A program made the translations under genes and the position numbers. A model generated the notes under the pieces. The model saw only the letters and a program-made list of their open reading frames with translations, ran no database searches and had not been told where the DNA came from. 64,000 bases of DNA. Source: Gamaleyavirus AN24P2. Below are positions 9,747-64,000 of the stretch, piece by piece. Each line of letters starts with the position of its first letter. Within the stretch, counting starts at the first letter, position 1. The stretch lies in the sequence record OZ035810.1; one strand, 5' to 3'.

Positions 9747-12017
9747 ATGGAACACCAAGACACTTTTAAGCCTTTACCAGACCCGGCTCAATCAGAGAAG
9801 TTAACGGACTGGAAGAAGGAACCAAGTATCCAATTACTGAAGGGTGATTTGGAATCAGCTAAACCTGCTCACGATGCAATCATGGCACAGATTCGTGAGT
9901 GGAATGATCTTATGGAAGTTAAGGGTAAGGCTAAGCCACCAAAGGTGAAGGGACGGTCACAAGTCCAACCTAGACTGGTTCGCCGTCAGGCAGAATGGAG
10001 ATATGCTCCATTGTCTGAACCATTCCTCTCTTCTAACAAACTCTTTAAGGTAACTCCGGTTACTTTTGAAGATGAATTAGCTGCACGTCAAAATGAACTG
10101 GTTCTTAACTACCAATTCCGTACCCAGCTTAATAGAGTAAAGCTGGTAGATGATTACGTGCACAGTGTTGTGGATGATGGTACTGGTATTGCTCGTATTG
10201 GCTGGGAACGTAAGACTGTTAAGATTAAAACAGAAACTCCAGTATTCCAGTTGTATCCAATTGAGAACCAGGAACAAGCAGATGTTCTTCAACAGGCTCT
10301 ACAGCTTCAGGCAGAAAATCCCCGTGAGTATGACGAGACAATGCCAGAGGATATTAAGGAAGCTGTTAACTACTTTAATGAAACTGGTGAAGCTACTTAT
10401 GCAATCCAGACTGGGGTTACTGAAGTAGAAGTAGAGAAAGCACTGGTTAACAGACCTACCGTTGAAATGCTTAATCCTAATAACGTAGTTATTGACCCAA
10501 GCTGTAATGGTGATTTGGATAAGGCTCTGTATGCAGTTATCTCCTTTGAGACATGCAAAGCAGACCTTATGAAAAACAAAGACCGTTATCACAACCTAGA
10601 TAAAATTGACTGGGAAAGTTCTAGTCCTATTACTGACCCAGACCATGAAAGTAAAACCCCTAGCGACTTCCAGTTTAAGGATGCACTACGTAAGAAAGTA
10701 GTTGCTTATGAGTACTGGGGATTCTATGACATTAATGATGACGGTTCACTGGAACCAATTGTTGCTACCTGGATTGGTTCTACTCTTATTCGTATGGAGA
10801 AAAACCCATTCCCTGATGGTAAGTTACCTTTGGTAGTTGTTCCCTACATGCCCCGTAAACGTGAACTCTTCGGTGAAGCTGATGCTGAATTGTTAGGAGA
10901 TAACCAAGCAATTCTCGGTGCAACTATTCGTGGAATGATTGACCTGCTGGGTCGTAGTGCAAATGGTCAACGTGGTTATCCTAAGGGAATGTTAGATACA
11001 CTTAACCGTCGTCGATATGATGATGGACAAGACTATGAATATAACCCAATGCAAGGTAACCCTAGTCAGGCCATTATGGAACATAAGTTCCCCGAGTTAC
11101 CTCAATCAGCAATAGTAATGACTCAGATGCAGAACCAGGAAGCTGAATCACTAACTGGTGTTAAAGCATTTTCCGGTGGTGTAACTGGTTCAGCTTATGG
11201 TGATGTAGCTGCTGGTATTCGAGGTGCACTTGATGCAGCATCCAAACGGGAGATGGCAATTCTTCGTCGATTAGCTAAAGGTATGGCAGACATTGGTACT
11301 AAGATTTGTGCAATGAATGCTGTGTTTTTATCTGAGAAAGAAGTAGTACGTATTACCAATGAGCAGTATGTAGAAATTAATCGTGAAGACCTTAAAGGTA
11401 ATTTCGACATTGAGGTTGATATTAATACTGCTGAAATTGATAACCAGAAATCTCAGGATTTGAGCTTCATGGTTCAAACATTGGGTAATACGGTTGACCA
11501 AACTATTACATTATCTCTTGTAGCAAAGATTGCAGAGCTTAAACGTATGCCAGACCTTGCTCATGAGTTACGTAATTGGAAACCACAGCCAGATCCTATG
11601 GAAGAACAGCTTAAGCAGTTAGCAATTCAGAAAGCACAACTAGAGAATGAAGAGTTGAAAAGTAAGATTGCACTTAATAATGCTAAGGCTAAAGAAGCTG
11701 CTTCCAGTGGTGACCTTAAAGATTTGGATTATCTGGAACAGGAATCTGGTACTAAACATGCCCGAGATATGGAAAAACAAAAAGCACAATCTCAAGGAAA
11801 CCAAAACCTTCAGATAACTAAGGCATTGACAACACCCGTTAAAGAAGGGGAAACTACCCCCAACATATCTGCTGCTGTTGGATATAATACTTTGACTAAC
11901 GGGAACTCTATACCAGAACGTGATTTAGCTGCTCAACAAGACCCGGCTTACTCACTTAGTTCCCAATACTATGACCCTAGCCAAGACCCAGCATCGGCTC
12001 TTGGTATGAACCTATAA
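9747..12017 (+). CDS. portal protein
   Basis: 756-aa protein (N4 portal is of similar size); follows the lysis cassette and precedes scaffold/capsid genes; acidic C-terminus. Confidence 0.7.
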
Positions 12018-58925: not shown

Positions 58926-59240
58926 TCAGGATTGCGTAGCAAGCCAATCCAGATATTCTTCTGGGTCATCGAAGTATTCATTACCATCTTCATAGAACCA
59001 GTCAACCCAACGGTCTTCTAGTTCCATATCGACTAGGTCTTGGTCAGTGAGGGACTCATCCCACATCTCAATACCGTTAGCATTAGCATAATCGCCTTTG
59101 ACATTGTTCTCATACTGAAATAGGTCATAGTCTGCTAATGCATTCTTAATCTTAACAGCTTCCTGAAGACTGTCTGTTTCTACATGAAATGCCTTCATTG
59201 GCACTTGAGGAATGTGCCATACACGCAATTTTTGTGTCAT
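58926..59240 (-). CDS. acidic aromatic-rich small protein
   Basis: ORF-track start 59315 is TTG; ATG at 59240 has an AGGAG RBS; C-terminus DWFYEDGNEYFDDPEEYLDWL. Confidence 0.4.
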   Translation of the reverse strand: MTQKLRVWHIPQVPMKAFHVETDSLQEAVKIKNALADYDLFQYENNVKGDYANANGIEMWDESLTDQDLVDMELEDRWVDWFYEDGNEYFDDPEEYLDWLATQS

Positions 59241-59304
59241 TTTTACTCTCCTATAAATACAAGAAGCCCTCACAAGGAGGGCTTTAACCAAATAAAGACT
59301 ACTA

Positions 59305-60138
59305 TTATTCTGCAACAGTAATAGCGATGGTTACATCGACCTTACCATTGGTAACTACTACAGAAGTAGCTTCCCCAGCAGCCACAGGTTTAACTGTTAG
59401 TACGTTACCAGCAATTGTAGCTGTAGCACGGGCAGAATCCGGAGCAGTCTTGATAGACAAAGTACCAGCAGAAGAACCAACAGGCATAGTAGCAATGGTT
59501 ACAGTCTTACCGGCAGCAGTATCAGCAGCAACAGACAGAGCCAGTGAATCTGGGGTAGCTACCAGAGAGCTTGCTTCGTAGTAGCCTACAGCCAGCAGTG
59601 ACTCATCTTCTACCGTGGTTCCATTAGCATCAGTAACAATCACTTTATAAGTACCAGCAGAAGCAGCTGTTACGTTATTAAGTGTCAATGTTGCAGTAGC
59701 AGCAGATGCGTTATCACCAGAATCAATATCAGTGAATACTGCACCAGCAGTATCAGCTTTGAATTGCCATTTATAAGTAAATGGAGCTTTACCACCTGCT
59801 ACATCAACATGCCAGTTAACATCTTCACCTTCGATAGTGGAGACTAAACGAGGCAGTTTGGTAGCAATAGTCAGTTGTGGAGTAGCTTTCATATCAATAG
59901 AGATGGCTTGCATATCCACAATGTTGTTAGGCCAGAAGCCTGCTTTAGAAGGGTCTTTAGCAGAACGTTTGTACAGCAGATCACGAACCCCATGAAAGAT
60001 AACTAAGCTATCTGGGTAAGTGGCATCTGGATGTACAAAAGTACCTACTTCTACTGAACCACCTGGAATAGAACCACCTGCATCCAGTACAGTTGCAACA
60101 TTGGTGGTTTTGTTAAAACCTACTTTTAAAGTTGGCAT
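59305..60138 (-). CDS. Ig-like domain protein (possible capsid decoration protein)
   Basis: 277 aa; Thr/Ala/Val-rich beta-strand repeats (ATATLTLNNVTAASAGTYKVIVTDANGTT) typical of bacterial Ig-like domains. Confidence 0.4.
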   Translation of the reverse strand: MPTLKVGFNKTTNVATVLDAGGSIPGGSVEVGTFVHPDATYPDSLVIFHGVRDLLYKRSAKDPSKAGFWPNNIVDMQAISIDMKATPQLTIATKLPRLVSTIEGEDVNWHVDVAGGKAPFTYKWQFKADTAGAVFTDIDSGDNASAATATLTLNNVTAASAGTYKVIVTDANGTTVEDESLLAVGYYEASSLVATPDSLALSVAADTAAGKTVTIATMPVGSSAGTLSIKTAPDSARATATIAGNVLTVKPVAAGEATSVVVTNGKVDVTIAITVAE

Positions 60139-60212
60139 ATGAATTTCCTCTTAAGTAAATAGCAGGGTTAGTATACACGATGGGTAAAAATAAAAACCCT
60201 CCATTAGGAGGG

Positions 60213-60479
60213 TTAGATAATTACATAGTAGATAGCAAAAGCTATCCATCCTGCCATTACAAAGCAGCCAAGTGAGTATGCTCCATAGTAACAGTAAGCA
60301 AACTTAGACTTGTGGGCACGAACTATCGTAGCCAGAACCAGTACAGATAAAACTATCAGTATTATCTGAGAGATTACTTCAAAAGGGATTAGCATAGTTA
60401 TTACCTCCAAGCAAAAAATAAAGCCCCACTCCCGAAGGAATGAGGCTAGTTTATTAATACACTTGCACAGTCCAGCCAT
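60213..60479 (-). CDS. small membrane protein
   Basis: 88 aa; two hydrophobic helices. Confidence 0.3.
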   Translation of the reverse strand: MAGLCKCINKLASFLREWGFIFCLEVITMLIPFEVISQIILIVLSVLVLATIVRAHKSKFAYCYYGAYSLGCFVMAGWIAFAIYYVII

Positions 60480-60580
60480 TGTAAGAATCTACAAAGACAA
60501 TCCAGTCATCTTCTGCCCATAGTCTAGAACAAACTCCTGGGACTTTGAATCTGTATAAACCTTGTCTATAAGCTTCTTTT

Positions 60581-61798
60581 TTAGCTAAGGGCATAATCGG
60601 CCTCCAGAATGTCTTGCCAGAGGCTGTCATCCAGCTTACCAGCAGAGAACTCTTGTCCAAGTACCTGGGACAGGATGAATCCCAGTAGGTCACTCTTCGC
60701 AATGTCAGACAGAATCTGATTGTACTGACGACGTAGGTCATTACCATAGTTAGGGTGGCAACGGAAGCAGTCATGTACAGTCATTACAGGGAATGGCTTC
60801 TTAGGCATAGTGTCAATCATATCTGCTACTACTTGACGGTCTACCAATGCAATAGTATTCGGGTCAAGGAAGTCTAGGATAGACAGCGACAGGAATCCAG
60901 ATTTCTCATAATGATTCCAGATTTCCATAGTTTTCTCTTGGTTCCCTTCAATAACAGGGTATTCACTTGGTCCGATATCGCACAGTTCACGTACATAGGC
61001 AACCAGTTTAGGATCGAAGTTACAACGACGCAGCATCTCACGTACCACCATTCCATCAATAGAGTGAGTGATGTTAGCAGAAAGCATACGGGTCTTCTCT
61101 TCAGTACCCTGAACCATACGAGTGATGTCAAATGGCTTACCTAAGAAGTTAACAGTTTGTACTTCTGGAACCATGACCTTAATGACAGCATGGAAGTTGT
61201 CAGGTAATACCCATACGTAACGGTTAGCATCCGGGTTACCACATTGCAGTAAGAACTTGTTCAATGCCCAAGGACCACTAGCAACAGTTTCCATTACATT
61301 CTCAAAAGTCTTGAGACGAATACCTTCACCGAATACTTCTTTAGGCTTGGCTTCTGAACCGTAGAATGCAGTCATAACTGCCTGCTTAGTGTCACTACGT
61401 TTAATACGAGATGCTTCACCAAGGATGTCCAGCATCTTATGATAGATAACTGTATAAGCATCACGACGTAATGGCTTACCATTCTCTCCCATGTAATTAA
61501 CTACGTTACACAGTTCAGCAGCAGAACGGTCACCAGTCAGGCAAGCCAGTAACTGCAATCCTGACGATGTAGCATCCAGAGCCACGGCATACCCAATAGG
61601 CTTACCTGCTTTCATGTCTTTCCATGCGTTTAAGCCAGCATAGAACAGTGCAGATTCTTCAGCTTCATCTACCAGATTAAGTAGGTTAGCCTCATTCTCA
61701 TCGAACCAAGTAATACGTTCATCCCAGGTCTTTTTATCCAGACCATAGTTATTGGCGATGTCTACTTTCAAGTATTCTTTAGCGGTTAACAGTTGCAT
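60581..61798 (-). CDS. phage RNA polymerase II large subunit (T7-like catalytic subunit, N4 gp16-like)
   Basis: 405 aa (N4 gp16 is 404 aa); T7 RNAP motif A-like ALDATSSGLQLLA, motif B-like TAFYGSEAK, motif C-like VHDCFRC; AAGGA RBS. Confidence 0.7.
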   Translation of the reverse strand: MQLLTAKEYLKVDIANNYGLDKKTWDERITWFDENEANLLNLVDEAEESALFYAGLNAWKDMKAGKPIGYAVALDATSSGLQLLACLTGDRSAAELCNVVNYMGENGKPLRRDAYTVIYHKMLDILGEASRIKRSDTKQAVMTAFYGSEAKPKEVFGEGIRLKTFENVMETVASGPWALNKFLLQCGNPDANRYVWVLPDNFHAVIKVMVPEVQTVNFLGKPFDITRMVQGTEEKTRMLSANITHSIDGMVVREMLRRCNFDPKLVAYVRELCDIGPSEYPVIEGNQEKTMEIWNHYEKSGFLSLSILDFLDPNTIALVDRQVVADMIDTMPKKPFPVMTVHDCFRCHPNYGNDLRRQYNQILSDIAKSDLLGFILSQVLGQEFSAGKLDDSLWQDILEADYALS

Positions 61799-61855
61799 CT
61801 TATGTTCCTTTTGCTTCTTGGCTCCTCACTATGGAGAGCCTGCTTATTGGATGAA

Positions 61856-62095
61856 TTAGCCAGCATTAAATGATGACAATACTATTCCTGGTTCCACACC
61901 TTCGGTGGCAATACCTAGGTACTCGATGTGCACTCTCTCAGGAGAGGAACACCAGGCGGAAGACAGATTCCATTCTCCGTCTGGATTAATAAGGCGAGCT
62001 TCTTCTTTAGTTTTGGCCGCTACAACGGCAGAATCGTATGTATCCCACCCTGTGTTCTCTTCCTGGCTAATAAGCCATAGTTTTAATCTACTCAT
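61856..62095 (-). CDS. small hypothetical protein between the RNAP II subunits
   Basis: 79-aa ORF overlapping the stop of the RNAP II small-subunit gene. Confidence 0.3.
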   Translation of the reverse strand: MSRLKLWLISQEENTGWDTYDSAVVAAKTKEEARLINPDGEWNLSSAWCSSPERVHIEYLGIATEGVEPGIVLSSFNAG

Positions 62096-62906
62096 CGTTT
62101 ACTAACTCCTTATTAGCGAACTCCAGTACAGCTTTGTTGTAGCTGGTTCCCTGATAGTTAATGTGATAGCCCTGAGCGTAAGTACGCCCACGTTTGTCAT
62201 ATTTGTGACCTAGTGAGAAGTTATTACCTTCTTTGGACACTAACTCCATTACTTCCTTAGCAGTACGGCTGTACTTCTCAAAGGCTTTAACACGTTTCTC
62301 ATAATCCTGACGGGTTTCGCCCTCTTTGGGCTTATCCATATTAGGACGGGAGTCTTTTACATAGTTAGCAACGTCCCAGTTAATGCTTAGACGTTGATTA
62401 TTCATACGGTTGATGTGGTCAAGACAGACATCCATCTCATGATGGTTCTTCTTGAGGATGATACTTCCTCTGCTCTCGTAGTAACCTGTATCACGGTTAC
62501 ACAGAACAGGCTTAGGAGCACTTACGATAGGTAATGGATATTGGAATGCTTCCAGTTCCATCTGTACATCTTCACTAATCTCATAGATAACACCGAATTT
62601 GTCGATGGTAGGGTCATAGTTGAAGCAGTCATTCTCTGCCATTTTATACAGACAGTCGGCGATGTACTGAGCATCATCTGAGTGGTTCATGAGAGAGCCA
62701 ATCATAGTCTGAAGGTCAGCACGTTTATGTAGGGCAATCTGCACCATTGCATCAATGAGCAGCTTATAATCAATTTCCAAATAGGCAGCGAATGCCTTAA
62801 AGTCAATTTCTTCGGAGTCCTCAAATTCCTTCCTCATACGAGGGAGTAACTGGCATTTATTAAACAGTGTTTCTAAAGTCTTTTGATGCTCAATGGATGC
62901 GTACAT
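62088..62906 (-). CDS. phage RNA polymerase II small subunit (N4 gp15-like)
   Basis: 272 aa (N4 gp15 is about 269 aa); directly upstream of the catalytic subunit. Confidence 0.6.
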   Translation of the reverse strand: MYASIEHQKTLETLFNKCQLLPRMRKEFEDSEEIDFKAFAAYLEIDYKLLIDAMVQIALHKRADLQTMIGSLMNHSDDAQYIADCLYKMAENDCFNYDPTIDKFGVIYEISEDVQMELEAFQYPLPIVSAPKPVLCNRDTGYYESRGSIILKKNHHEMDVCLDHINRMNNQRLSINWDVANYVKDSRPNMDKPKEGETRQDYEKRVKAFEKYSRTAKEVMELVSKEGNNFSLGHKYDKRGRTYAQGYHINYQGTSYNKAVLEFANKELVNDE

Positions 62907-62929
62907 AGCTTCTTTCCTATATGAGTTAA

Positions 62930-63406
62930 TTATTTACCGTGATTCGGATGATAGCCGAGAAGATACATAGCTCTTTCTCGTGCTTTACTGGCTTCTTCTA
63001 TAGTATCGAAGTAGCCTAGGTGTTTTAGCTTACCGTCTATACTTATTCGTGCACTCCACTTCTGTAACTTTGCATACCACCCGACACCAGTAACACCGGA
63101 TTTGTTTCTTTTATCTTTGGATTTATTCTTCATGTTTCCTGCATGAGTGGTTAAATTAAGATTACTTAGTAGATTGTTGGCTCTGTTCCTGTCGTCATGG
63201 TCTATTACCATTCCAGGAGGAACTGGGCCATTATGCATCTCCCATATGATTACATGGACACGGTATTGCTTTGCTTTATACATGAAGGTGAGATAGCCGG
63301 TATGATGCATACTTCCTGCTTCATCCCCTATTTTTACTCGTACTGCTGGTTTAATCTTCCAGTATATTCTGCCATTGGCATACTCAAAGATTTCATGCCA
63401 ATTCAT
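62930..63406 (-). CDS. HNH homing endonuclease with AP2 DNA-binding domain
   Basis: 158 aa; HNH_3-like VIDHDDRNRANNLLSNLNLTTHAGN; AP2-like SGVTGVGWYAKLQKWSARISIDGKLKHLGYFDTIEEASKAR; ATG with AGGAG RBS. Confidence 0.7.
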   Translation of the reverse strand: MNWHEIFEYANGRIYWKIKPAVRVKIGDEAGSMHHTGYLTFMYKAKQYRVHVIIWEMHNGPVPPGMVIDHDDRNRANNLLSNLNLTTHAGNMKNKSKDKRNKSGVTGVGWYAKLQKWSARISIDGKLKHLGYFDTIEEASKARERAMYLLGYHPNHGK

Positions 63407-63430
63407 CGCATATTCTCCTAAATGTGATTA

Positions 63431-63455
63431 ATAACCAAAAGCTGCGGAGCAGCTA
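63431..63455. promoter_or_regulatory. hairpin with 3-nt GGA loop preceded by AAAAG: candidate vRNAP-type early promoter and/or minus-strand terminator
   Basis: Plus strand CCAAAAG-CTGC-GGA-GCAG-CT; on the minus strand the same hairpin is followed by TTTTGG. It lies in the only sizeable intergenic gap in the early region. Confidence 0.4.
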
Positions 63456-63459
63456 TTAC

Positions 63460-63735
63460 CTAACGTTTAGTCCAAAAGGTAATACGAATACTGTTCTCTT
63501 GACCAAGGTAGTCAATACGTACATATAAACCATTACCGCTAAACTCGTTATTTTTCTTCTGGTAAGGCCATACCAGACTACGCATAGGTATTTTAATTAA
63601 ACCAGATATATGACCTAGTTTAGTACGACCCTTTAGTTCGTTTTGTAATGCACAATAGATATCATGCCGTGTAAGTGCCCTGGCTCTGACTTGAGCAGCC
63701 CATAGTTCTTCATATGTCATTTGGTAGTCTCCCAA
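63460..63735 (-). CDS. hypothetical early protein
   Basis: 91-aa ORF, minus strand. Confidence 0.35.
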   Translation of the reverse strand: MGDYQMTYEELWAAQVRARALTRHDIYCALQNELKGRTKLGHISGLIKIPMRSLVWPYQKKNNEFSGNGLYVRIDYLGQENSIRITFWTKR

Positions 63736-63980
63736 TAGTTGAAGGCATCACCTAAGTGTTTACGCCATGCTTCAGGTAACAATACGTTGCCTGTAACATT
63801 AATGAACTGATATGGGTCTAGATAGTCATTACTCATGACTTTGAAATCCCATTGTGGATTGGCAGATGCATAGGCAATGAAGCCTTCAATGAAGCCATAG
63901 ATAGCACCCTCTTTGATACGGTTACCATTGCCATCTCTTACTGGGATAGCAAAGCTATTACCATAATGACCATAGGCCAT
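63717..63980 (-). CDS. hypothetical early protein
   Basis: 87-aa ORF; reading frame is open to the window edge, so the true start may lie beyond 64000. Confidence 0.3.
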   Translation of the reverse strand: MAYGHYGNSFAIPVRDGNGNRIKEGAIYGFIEGFIAYASANPQWDFKVMSNDYLDPYQFINVTGNVLLPEAWRKHLGDAFNYWETTK

Positions 63981-64000
63981 ACCCCAACGAGCACCGTGCT

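Follow-up and report, generated by a model that had tools for sequence, protein, structure and literature searches.

The gene and its domains

The first 64 kb of the genome of Gamaleyavirus AN24P2, a G7C/N4-like podovirus of the Schitoviridae (this stretch of 64,000 nucleotides, hereinafter the window, has the same coordinates as record OZ035740.1, 71,225 bp), contain at 62930..63406 a gene for a protein of the HNH family, on the minus strand together with all the genes around it. The gene is a single intact open reading frame (ORF) of 158 aa plus stop that starts with ATG and is preceded, 8 nt upstream, by the Shine-Dalgarno (SD) sequence AGGAG. On its 3' side lies the gene of the small subunit of RNA polymerase II (RNAP II; 62088..62906, minus strand), which is N4 gp15-like (phrog_2166 'N4-like RNA polymerase', E=1.4e-114) and is annotated as RNAP1 in relatives. 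On the 5' side there is an early 86-aa ORF, function unassigned (63460..63720/63735, minus strand; phrog_14487), whose true start is probably the ATG at 63720 because its homologues align from residue 6. Here we argue that the HNH gene very likely belongs to the free-standing homing endonuclease genes (HEGs), its product being a nuclease of the HNH_3/I-HmuI type that ends in an AP2 domain, and that the element has its home in Gamaleyavirus phages at the junction that directly precedes the ATG of the RNAP II small-subunit gene.

The nuclease part of the protein is recognized easily. The Pfam family HNH_3 (PF13392) is matched above threshold (E=3.3e-17, 62.3 bits as compared to a cutoff of 24.8) by aa 48-92, which cover profile positions 1-45 of 46; the beta-beta-alpha-metal core is thus encoded by 63131..63265 (minus strand) and carries D69, H70, N78, N82 and N91. 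The whole length of the protein matches phrog_99, 'HNH endonuclease' (E=5.8e-61), and the sole sequence match in the PDB is the homing endonuclease I-HmuI (1U3E, E=1.1e-4). In the alignment with the latter, D69-H70, N82 and N91 fall on the D-H, N and N of the I-HmuI motif, with D-H placed on the DH of ..VVDHKDGNKDNNLSTNL..KIN.. (by our own count starting from H75, these I-HmuI residues are D74-H75, N87 and N96). Among 28 aligned homologues, H70 is invariant, whereas D69, N78, N82 and N91 are conserved in at least 90%.

The AlphaFold2 model of the protein (mean predicted local distance difference test score, pLDDT, of 86.2) consists of an N-terminal sheet, the beta-beta-alpha core (strands 66-70 and 83-87, helix 88-92) and a C-terminal sheet with a helix. 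In the C-terminal domain, strands 108-111, 116-123 and 126-133 make up a three-stranded sheet that is followed by a single helix (136-149), with block-mean pLDDT values of 80-92 across aa 111-150. When the whole chain is compared with known structures by Foldseek, I-HmuI (1U3E) comes out on top, followed by plant and apicomplexan AP2 domains: the C-terminal region superposes on the AP2 domains of Arabidopsis TEM1 (root-mean-square deviation, rmsd, of about 1.0-1.4 A) and AtERF1 (2.0 A) with a probability of 1.0, and the matches to the AP2 domains of TEM1, ERF1 and WRINKLED1 as a whole have probabilities of 0.99-1.0 and rmsd values of 1.2-3.9 A. The model thus supports an AP2-type DNA-binding domain at aa 103-147 (62966..63100, minus strand), which is a weak match by profile but evident from the fold.

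The ratio of nonsynonymous to synonymous substitution rates (dN/dS) among the HNH orthologues described below is as low as 0.04-0.07; therefore the ORF is not a chance one and its product is functionally constrained. Taken together, these data confirm that 62930..63406 is a real, intact gene for an HNH_3 plus AP2 protein. The HNH gene has no second family member in the 71,225-bp genome, either inside or outside the window. An earlier note on this DNA, made from the sequence alone, had described a free-standing HNH_3 nuclease fused to an AP2 domain, located between an early gene and the RNAP II small-subunit gene; the location is borne out by the ORF map and the PHROG assignments, and the architecture by the Pfam match, the likeness to I-HmuI and the predicted fold. 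Loss of the HNH catalytic residues, which the note had named as a point that would speak against its reading, is not seen: these residues are in place.

Anatomy of the insertion

How the gene is fitted into its site becomes clear from the comparison with phage UE-S5b, the closest HEG-less isolate, which is about 94% identical over the region and 500 bases shorter than AN24P2. What stands before the ATG of the polymerase subunit in UE-S5b, namely the native hairpin, leader and SD (...TTAGGAGAATATGCG), stands before the ATG of the HNH gene in AN24P2. Hence the 30-nt leader with its native AGGAG (63407..63436, minus strand), nearly identical to the leader of RNAP1 in UE-S5b, serves the polymerase gene in the HEG-less relatives and the HNH gene in AN24P2. 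The extra segment, a cassette of about 500 bp, is composed of the ORF and a 21-26-nt spacer with an SD of its own, and has the native leader/SD on its 5' side and the polymerase ATG on its 3' side; the HEG-less junction of the UE-S5b or G7C type reads ...GGAGAATAAGCGATGTACTCATCCATTGAACATCAGAAGCAACTCGAA... In AN24P2, the spacer spans 23 nt (62907..62929, minus strand), is retained in all seven occupied genomes and provides the RNAP II small-subunit gene with a replacement SD, TTAACTCATATAGGAAAGAAGCT, which is unlike the native ..TTAGGAGAATAAGCG of the genomes with an empty site. As judged from these alignments, the HNH gene is an insertion at the RNAP II small-subunit junction.

Occupied and empty sites

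A search for the junction in 50,697 phage records yielded 78 related records, of which AN24P2 is the only one with the gene at this position. Most HEG-less relatives have an intergenic stretch of 51-56 nt here, and the exact empty site, shorter by 500 bp, is found in about 30 of the records listed. Neither was the HNH gene seen at the junction in any of 20 IMG/VR loci found via the polymerase subunit; the IMG/VR relatives of the HNH protein are all at most 49% identical to it and none is orthologous.

Some relatives carry something else at the same junction, namely an unrelated insert of about 235-260 bp with an ORF of about 85 aa that has no PHROG. This insert is present in several loci (L003 4084-4338; L007, L010, L011 and L017) and also in about eight phage records (SP5M, E20, F22, PE007, 24-32N, NAN33P5 and K57alpha1.2 among them); in Mimir124, the small-ORF insert has the hairpin on one side and the polymerase gene on the other. 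More than one kind of cargo is thus accepted at the site.

Orthologues were retrieved from a large protein collection and a metagenome scan, which gave six further genomes, all of them metagenomic contigs. Relative to the AN24P2 protein, their products show amino acid identities of 98% (L109, accession OEQM01000028.1), 90% (L024), 83% (L026), 80% (L027), 79% (L025) and 78% (L192). In all six, the gene lies 21-26 nt 5' of the small-subunit ATG and is preceded by the hairpin and SD native to the respective lineage, irrespective of the identity of the upstream gene. The next-closest proteins (L190, L191 and L193, 55-59% identity) occur in unrelated contexts and do not share the home site, and the paralogues of other Gamaleyaviruses, at most 52% identical, reside elsewhere in the genome.

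Horizontal movement of the gene

The backbones that carry the gene are only 70-92% identical in nucleotides, and the relatedness of the HNH alleles does not follow that of the backbones. Among AN24P2, L024, L025, L026 and L027, the alleles are 73-81% identical at the nucleotide level in all pairs, irrespective of whether the adjacent polymerase genes are 92% or 70% identical, and the identity matrices are star-like. Synonymous divergence of the HNH gene is saturated (dS of at least 1.4 or undefined) as compared with dS of 0.31-0.41 in the adjacent RNAP1 among AN24P2, L024 and L026. Divergence of the HNH alleles is thus uncoupled from that of the backbone.

The pair AN24P2 and L109 shows the opposite pattern, an island of identity that is centred on the HNH gene and decays on both sides. 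Nucleotide identity is 87.7% in the upstream ORF, 100% in the leader, 98.1% in the HNH gene (7 substitutions in 477 nt) and 100% in the spacer, and then falls through successive segments of the polymerase gene from 96.7% to 95.2%, 91.7% and 84.7%. Both the saturated alleles and the L109 island are what would be expected as footprints of repeated, and once recent, gene conversion centred on the element.

These comparisons also bear on two further statements of the earlier note. It had proposed to check by synteny whether the gene is absent from this junction in related phages, and this is the case: the gene is missing in the 77 other records and the 20 IMG/VR loci, where the junction is mostly empty and in some cases holds the small unrelated ORF, so that conservation at this position across the family is not observed. 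The suggestion of a recent insertion holds in part. It suits the allele shared by AN24P2 and OEQM01000028.1, given the identity island and the synonymous discordance, but not the element as a whole, which is old at the site: five or more allele lineages, 73-81% identical in nucleotides, are found at this junction.

The co-inherited patch in the polymerase gene

The trace of the element extends into the polymerase gene itself. Between AN24P2 and UE-S5b, the 50 nt directly 3' of the insert are 68% identical, while the flanks of this patch are 96-100% identical. All occupied genomes, regardless of the backbone, share a distinctive start of the polymerase gene (its first ~30 nt), the diagnostic positions being nt 7 (Ser3→Ala), nt 18 (GAA→GAG) and nt 29 (Gln10→Thr/Leu/Met/Val). 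These three positions separate all seven occupied genomes (or six of six if L192 is left aside) from all 17 empty loci; Gln10 is invariant in the latter, including lineages that are just 70% identical. A case in point is L026, with an RNAP1 that is 92% identical to that of AN24P2 in amino acids: its first ~90 nt are like those of the distant L025 and L027 (75-76%) and unlike those of its own close relatives. In AN24P2, the patch co-inherited with the HEG occupies the first 60 nt of the small-subunit gene (62847..62906, minus strand; S3A, GAA->GAG, Q10T) and is the candidate recognition region, presumably in a resistant form. Judging from this distribution, the patch is a co-conversion tract that probably also protects the occupied allele from the enzyme; in this case, the sequence open to attack would be that of the first ~30 nt in HEG-less polymerase genes, with the consensus ATGTACTCATCnATnGAACATCAGAnGCA. 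The exact occupied-type polymerase start, ATGTACGCATCCATTGAGCA, gave no matches in IMG/VR.

A putative hairpin promoter

The hairpin behind which the gene resides resembles the promoters of the virion RNA polymerase (vRNAP) of phage N4. The plus strand at 63434-63453 reads ...ACC-AAAA-GCTGC-GGA-GCAGC... (promoter stretch CCAAAAGCTGCGGAGCAGC), and the oligonucleotide with the N4 P2 promoter used for cryo-electron microscopy is ...GCC-AAAA-GAAGC-GGA-GCTTC... (CCAAAAGAAGCGGAGCTTC; PMC13492108). The determinants established for the N4 enzyme are a template-strand hairpin with a stem of 5-7 bp and a 3-nt loop, a purine at -11, -10G, -8G, an A-tract that serves as a ruler, and +1C (PMC4496689). With -8G, -9C, -10G, -11G, -12A, four A's and +1C, the hairpin GCTGC-GGA-GCAGC at 63441..63453 (5'->3' on the plus, i.e., template, strand) has all of them, and we regard it as a putative P2-type vRNAP promoter for leftward transcription of the minus-strand genes. 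By the N4 rules (PMC4496689), +1 would be at C63436 of the template, which leaves a leader of 30 nt to the HNH ATG. The HNH gene would then be the first gene of an early transcript made by the injected virion RNAP.

Only three such hairpins exist genome-wide, at 63441-63453, 67928-67940 and 68765-68777 (OZ035740.1), each preceded by CCAWAA; all three are on the plus (template) strand in the early region, and only the first falls within the window (the other two correspond to L028 5929-5941 and 6766-6778). By a hand estimate, about 1e-4 chance matches per genome are expected for CCAWAA-N3GC-GGA-GCN3 with a complementary stem. The three perfect CCAWAA-NNNGC-GGA-GCNNN hairpins mirror the three early promoters of N4, P1-P3. 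As to other signals, no convincing sigma-70 promoters were found in 59000-64000 (4 found as compared to 11 expected), and the terminator scan revealed no terminator-like site between the HNH and polymerase genes. The same scan scores the hairpin, which is followed by TTTT, as terminator-like for the upstream gene, and a dual role of 63441..63453 as promoter and terminator is possible.

A probable homing endonuclease and the alternatives

Integrity of the domains, purifying selection, the anatomy of the insertion, single-site occupancy, horizontal transfer and co-inheritance of the flank together form the basis for considering the AN24P2 gene a homing endonuclease gene. The sequence of events can be envisaged as follows. 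The protein would be made from the vRNAP promoter as soon as infection starts. If a HEG-less relative infects the same cell, its junction would be nicked or cut near the polymerase start, and recombinational repair on the HEG-bearing template would bring in the cassette along with a short downstream tract. This tract, made up of the replacement SD and the S3A / GAG / Q10X patch, would render the product resistant. Inheritance of the neighbouring RNAP II markers would thereby be biased, that is, marker exclusion would ensue, as the earlier note had suggested.

Several points weigh against this reading. That the enzyme cleaves, where it cuts and that it homes are deductions from sequence comparison. 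Enzymes of the I-HmuI type are nickases, and homing may therefore be inefficient. With 1 of 78 isolates carrying it, the element is rare and thus not sweeping. The AP2 match (PF00847, E=8.5e-5, 23.2 bits) stays under the Pfam gathering score of 33.3, and the AP2 matches in the precomputed annotations of the orthologues are likewise graded 'weak'. Ordinary homologous recombination could, in principle, produce an identity island without any nuclease. In the L109 copy, a 2-nt GC insertion (ATGCATCAT→ATGCGCATCAT, L109 2598-2602) shifts the frame at codon 33/34, which is either fresh inactivation and decay or an assembly error. The hairpin at 63441..63453 could equally be a terminator, its assignment as a promoter being based on likeness to N4. 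Finally, the heptamer GCGGAGC by itself shows no enrichment across the window (one occurrence as compared to 2.5 expected), and we dropped it as uninformative for promoter assignment; the argument is built on the full hairpin with the A-tract and +1C, which occurs in three copies on one strand.

The polymerase patch, too, can be read in a different way. A search of the phage collection with a 76-nt query identified phage phi G17 (MH358458.1; L189 1848-1900), which has no HEG although a spacer/SD and a polymerase start of the occupied type (TAATTAACTCATTAAAGGAAAGAAGCT-ATGTACGCATCCATTGAGCAC) directly follow its hairpin; it is the sole such HEG-less genome among the 78 phage records. It may represent an ancestral allele type, a resistant empty allele, or a precise loss of the cassette between two flanking TAATTAAC-type leader copies. 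The idea that the changes at nt 7, 18 and 29 are pure immunity mutations is weakened by phi G17; these changes may instead be sequence of the donor lineage carried along by co-conversion. More generally, the polymorphisms of the flank are linked to the HEG but may be markers of lineage and not the outcome of selection for immunity to the nuclease.

A more far-reaching version of the homing scenario can be put forward as well, albeit tentatively, since we hold it somewhat less probable than its negation. It envisages a hitherto undescribed lineage of HEGs that has made the translation start of the N4-type RNAP II small-subunit gene its specific target and that captures the vRNAP hairpin promoter and the ribosome-binding site (RBS), so that its product is the first protein of the early transcript, and that carries a spare RBS that keeps the essential polymerase gene expressed. 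Several ancient, low-frequency allele lineages would be kept by repeated homing, and the spread of the element would force S3A and the replacement of Q10 by T, L, M or V at otherwise invariant positions. With the second HNH slot between the subunit genes (see below), the RNAP II locus would be a hotspot where selfish nucleases shape the recombination of the middle-transcription machinery.

Among the alternatives, the one that survives best is domestication: the protein would be a retained nuclease or DNA-binding protein useful to the phage, for example by regulating the early RNAP II operon through AP2 or by attacking rival phages or the DNA of the host, and its patchiness would reflect the flux of accessory genes by ordinary recombination. 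Strong purifying selection and the ancient allele lineages do imply long-term maintenance, and the gene is part of an immediate-early operon under a putative vRNAP-type promoter; besides, other phages have recruited HEG-derived AP2 domains to silence transcription in a sequence-specific manner (bioRxiv 10.64898/2026.02.23.707548), and HEG domains have been co-opted in the conflict between phages and their satellites (PMC10448857). Active HEGs, however, are likewise under purifying selection, and the AN24P2 protein has kept all the nuclease residues, whereas regulators of the CasPR type consist of CapR, AP2 and helix-turn-helix (HTH) domains (bioRxiv 10.64898/2026.02.23.707548). Furthermore, the 77 of 78 related isolates in which the gene is absent replicate without it, and strict single-site occupancy combined with co-converted flanks and the identity island is a signature of homing and not of a freely shuffled accessory gene. 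Accordingly, domestication appears improbable.

Slightly less probable still is the possibility that a once-mobile HEG is now inactive in AN24P2 and hitch-hikes toward loss, as in a late phase of the homing cycle. The frameshift in L109, the closest copy, would suit such a relic, as would the rarity of the element among isolates and the state of phi G17, whose HEG-type flank without a HEG fits precise loss between the two leader copies. The AN24P2 ORF, however, is not truncated, and none of the conserved catalytic and AP2 residues is missing; the mere 7 substitutions in 477 nt that separate it from L109 leave little time for a silent inactivation, and dN/dS stays at 0.04-0.07 across the lineages.

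That the ORF is a chance one or an assembly artefact could be suspected only because the GenBank record is unannotated, and we count this as refuted in view of the highly significant family matches, the confident fold, the strong purifying selection and the orthologues at the same site in independent assemblies. A packaging role as a terminase-associated HNH protein was rejected by reasoning, considering the early region, the HNH_3/I-HmuI type and the absence from nearly all relatives.

Comparison with known systems

The homing endonuclease proposed here has well-studied counterparts. I-HmuI of the Bacillus phage SPO1 (1U3E) has in common with the AN24P2 protein an N-terminal beta-sheet, an HNH_3 core with D-H...N...N, an extended monomer and a separate C-terminal DNA-binding module. 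I-HmuI is encoded within a group I intron of a DNA polymerase gene and its C-terminal module is an HTH; the AN24P2 protein, only ~23% identical, is free-standing and intergenic and has AP2 at its C-terminus.

The free-standing T4 HEGs SegG, SegE and MobE are similar in being intergenic beside a conserved gene, in the co-conversion of flanking markers and in the presence/absence polymorphism. SegG and SegE are nucleases of the GIY-YIG family and differ in this respect. Marker exclusion by SegG, SegE and MobE was shown experimentally, according to Liu et al. (2003, J Mol Biol 334:13) as cited in PMC10448857, whereas in AN24P2 it would follow from sequence patterns alone.

HNH-AP2 endonucleases, in turn, are a HEG family of phages, cyanobacteria and protists, according to Magnani et al. 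(2004, Plant Cell 16:2265) as cited in PMC10448857. They include IPA-HNH of the Vibrio phage ICP1 (Barth et al. 2023, PMC10448857), which shares with the AN24P2 protein the N-terminal HNH and C-terminal AP2 domains, the free-standing state and the patchy occurrence at boundaries of genetic exchange. The HNH domains of ICP1 have diverged too far to be matched by the HNH_3 profile of Pfam (PMC10448857), whereas the AN24P2 protein is a canonical member of HNH_3; its home site and phage family differ as well. Within the genus, the paralogues annotated as 'HNH homing endonuclease' (G7C 10917-11387, U1G, UE-S5b 62496-62963, Mimir124) belong to the same phrog_99 and are alike in size and architecture, but are at most 52% identical and occupy other positions, none being at the junction 5' of the small-subunit gene. 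A literature survey returned no paper on AN24P2, and the papers on homing endonucleases of Gamaleyavirus contain no discussion of this junction. The AN24P2 HNH-AP2 gene is thus a typical free-standing HEG of an already known kind; specific to it are the home site and the arrangement of the cassette, which takes over the promoter and RBS of the host gene and gives that gene another RBS instead.

The surrounding locus and a second variable slot

The gene of the RNAP II large subunit (60581..61798, minus strand; gp16-like, PF00940, phrog_2051) is separated from the small-subunit gene by a gap that is a second variable slot. In AN24P2, this slot holds a 79-aa ORF (61856..62095, minus strand; phrog_5444). 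In other Gamaleyaviruses, it is occupied by a different HNH(-AP2) endonuclease of 168-169 aa, likewise assigned to phrog_99 and only 31-34% identical to the AN24P2 protein; inter-subunit HNH genes are found at L002 2755-3261, L003 2739-3245, L007 3906-4322, L010 3843-4241, L025 5272-5778 and L027 2386-2895. L025 and L027 carry both HEGs, one on either side of the small-subunit gene. At L007 4337-4399, 3' of the inter-subunit HNH gene, there is a duplicate of the last 21 small-subunit codons (90% amino acid identity), which looks like a target-duplication scar of the inter-subunit HEG. In L025 (4500-5269; contig coverage 0.94x), the small-subunit gene is split over two frames, aa 1-200 and 215-272, which is probably a sequencing error rather than biology. 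One may speculate, as an untested thought, that the activity of HEGs is linked to the split of a T7-like polymerase into two genes.

Just 3' of the large-subunit gene, two strong terminator-like hairpins with stems of 11 and 8 bp, each followed by a T-run, are located at 60422-60447 and 60195-60214 (minus strand); they are likely to be the end of the early transcription unit that would start at the putative hairpin promoter 5' of the HNH gene. On the other side, the early region is a mosaic. The phrog_2072 gene (63717-63980, minus strand) exists in close relatives as two very different alleles, with amino acid identities of 84-98% versus ~42%, and the nucleotide identity between AN24P2 and L109 drops to ~16% over this gene and farther upstream (63736-64300) in the raw alignment, which makes for sharp mosaic boundaries.

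Implications

On the practical side, the gene call fills a gap in the unannotated AN24P2 record. As regards gene organization, the case illustrates that a HEG can slot in between the promoter/RBS and the body of an essential gene without disrupting the expression of that gene. The RNAP II locus of the G7C-like phages is marked as a hotspot of recombination and, if the inferred exclusion takes place, of marker exclusion, which is relevant both to therapeutic cocktails and to genetic crosses. For the Schitoviridae, the junction offers a natural example of the homing cycle, with four states represented in the sequence data: empty and presumably sensitive (most isolates), occupied (AN24P2 and others), occupied but frameshifted (OEQM01000028.1), and empty with an occupied-type flank (phi G17).

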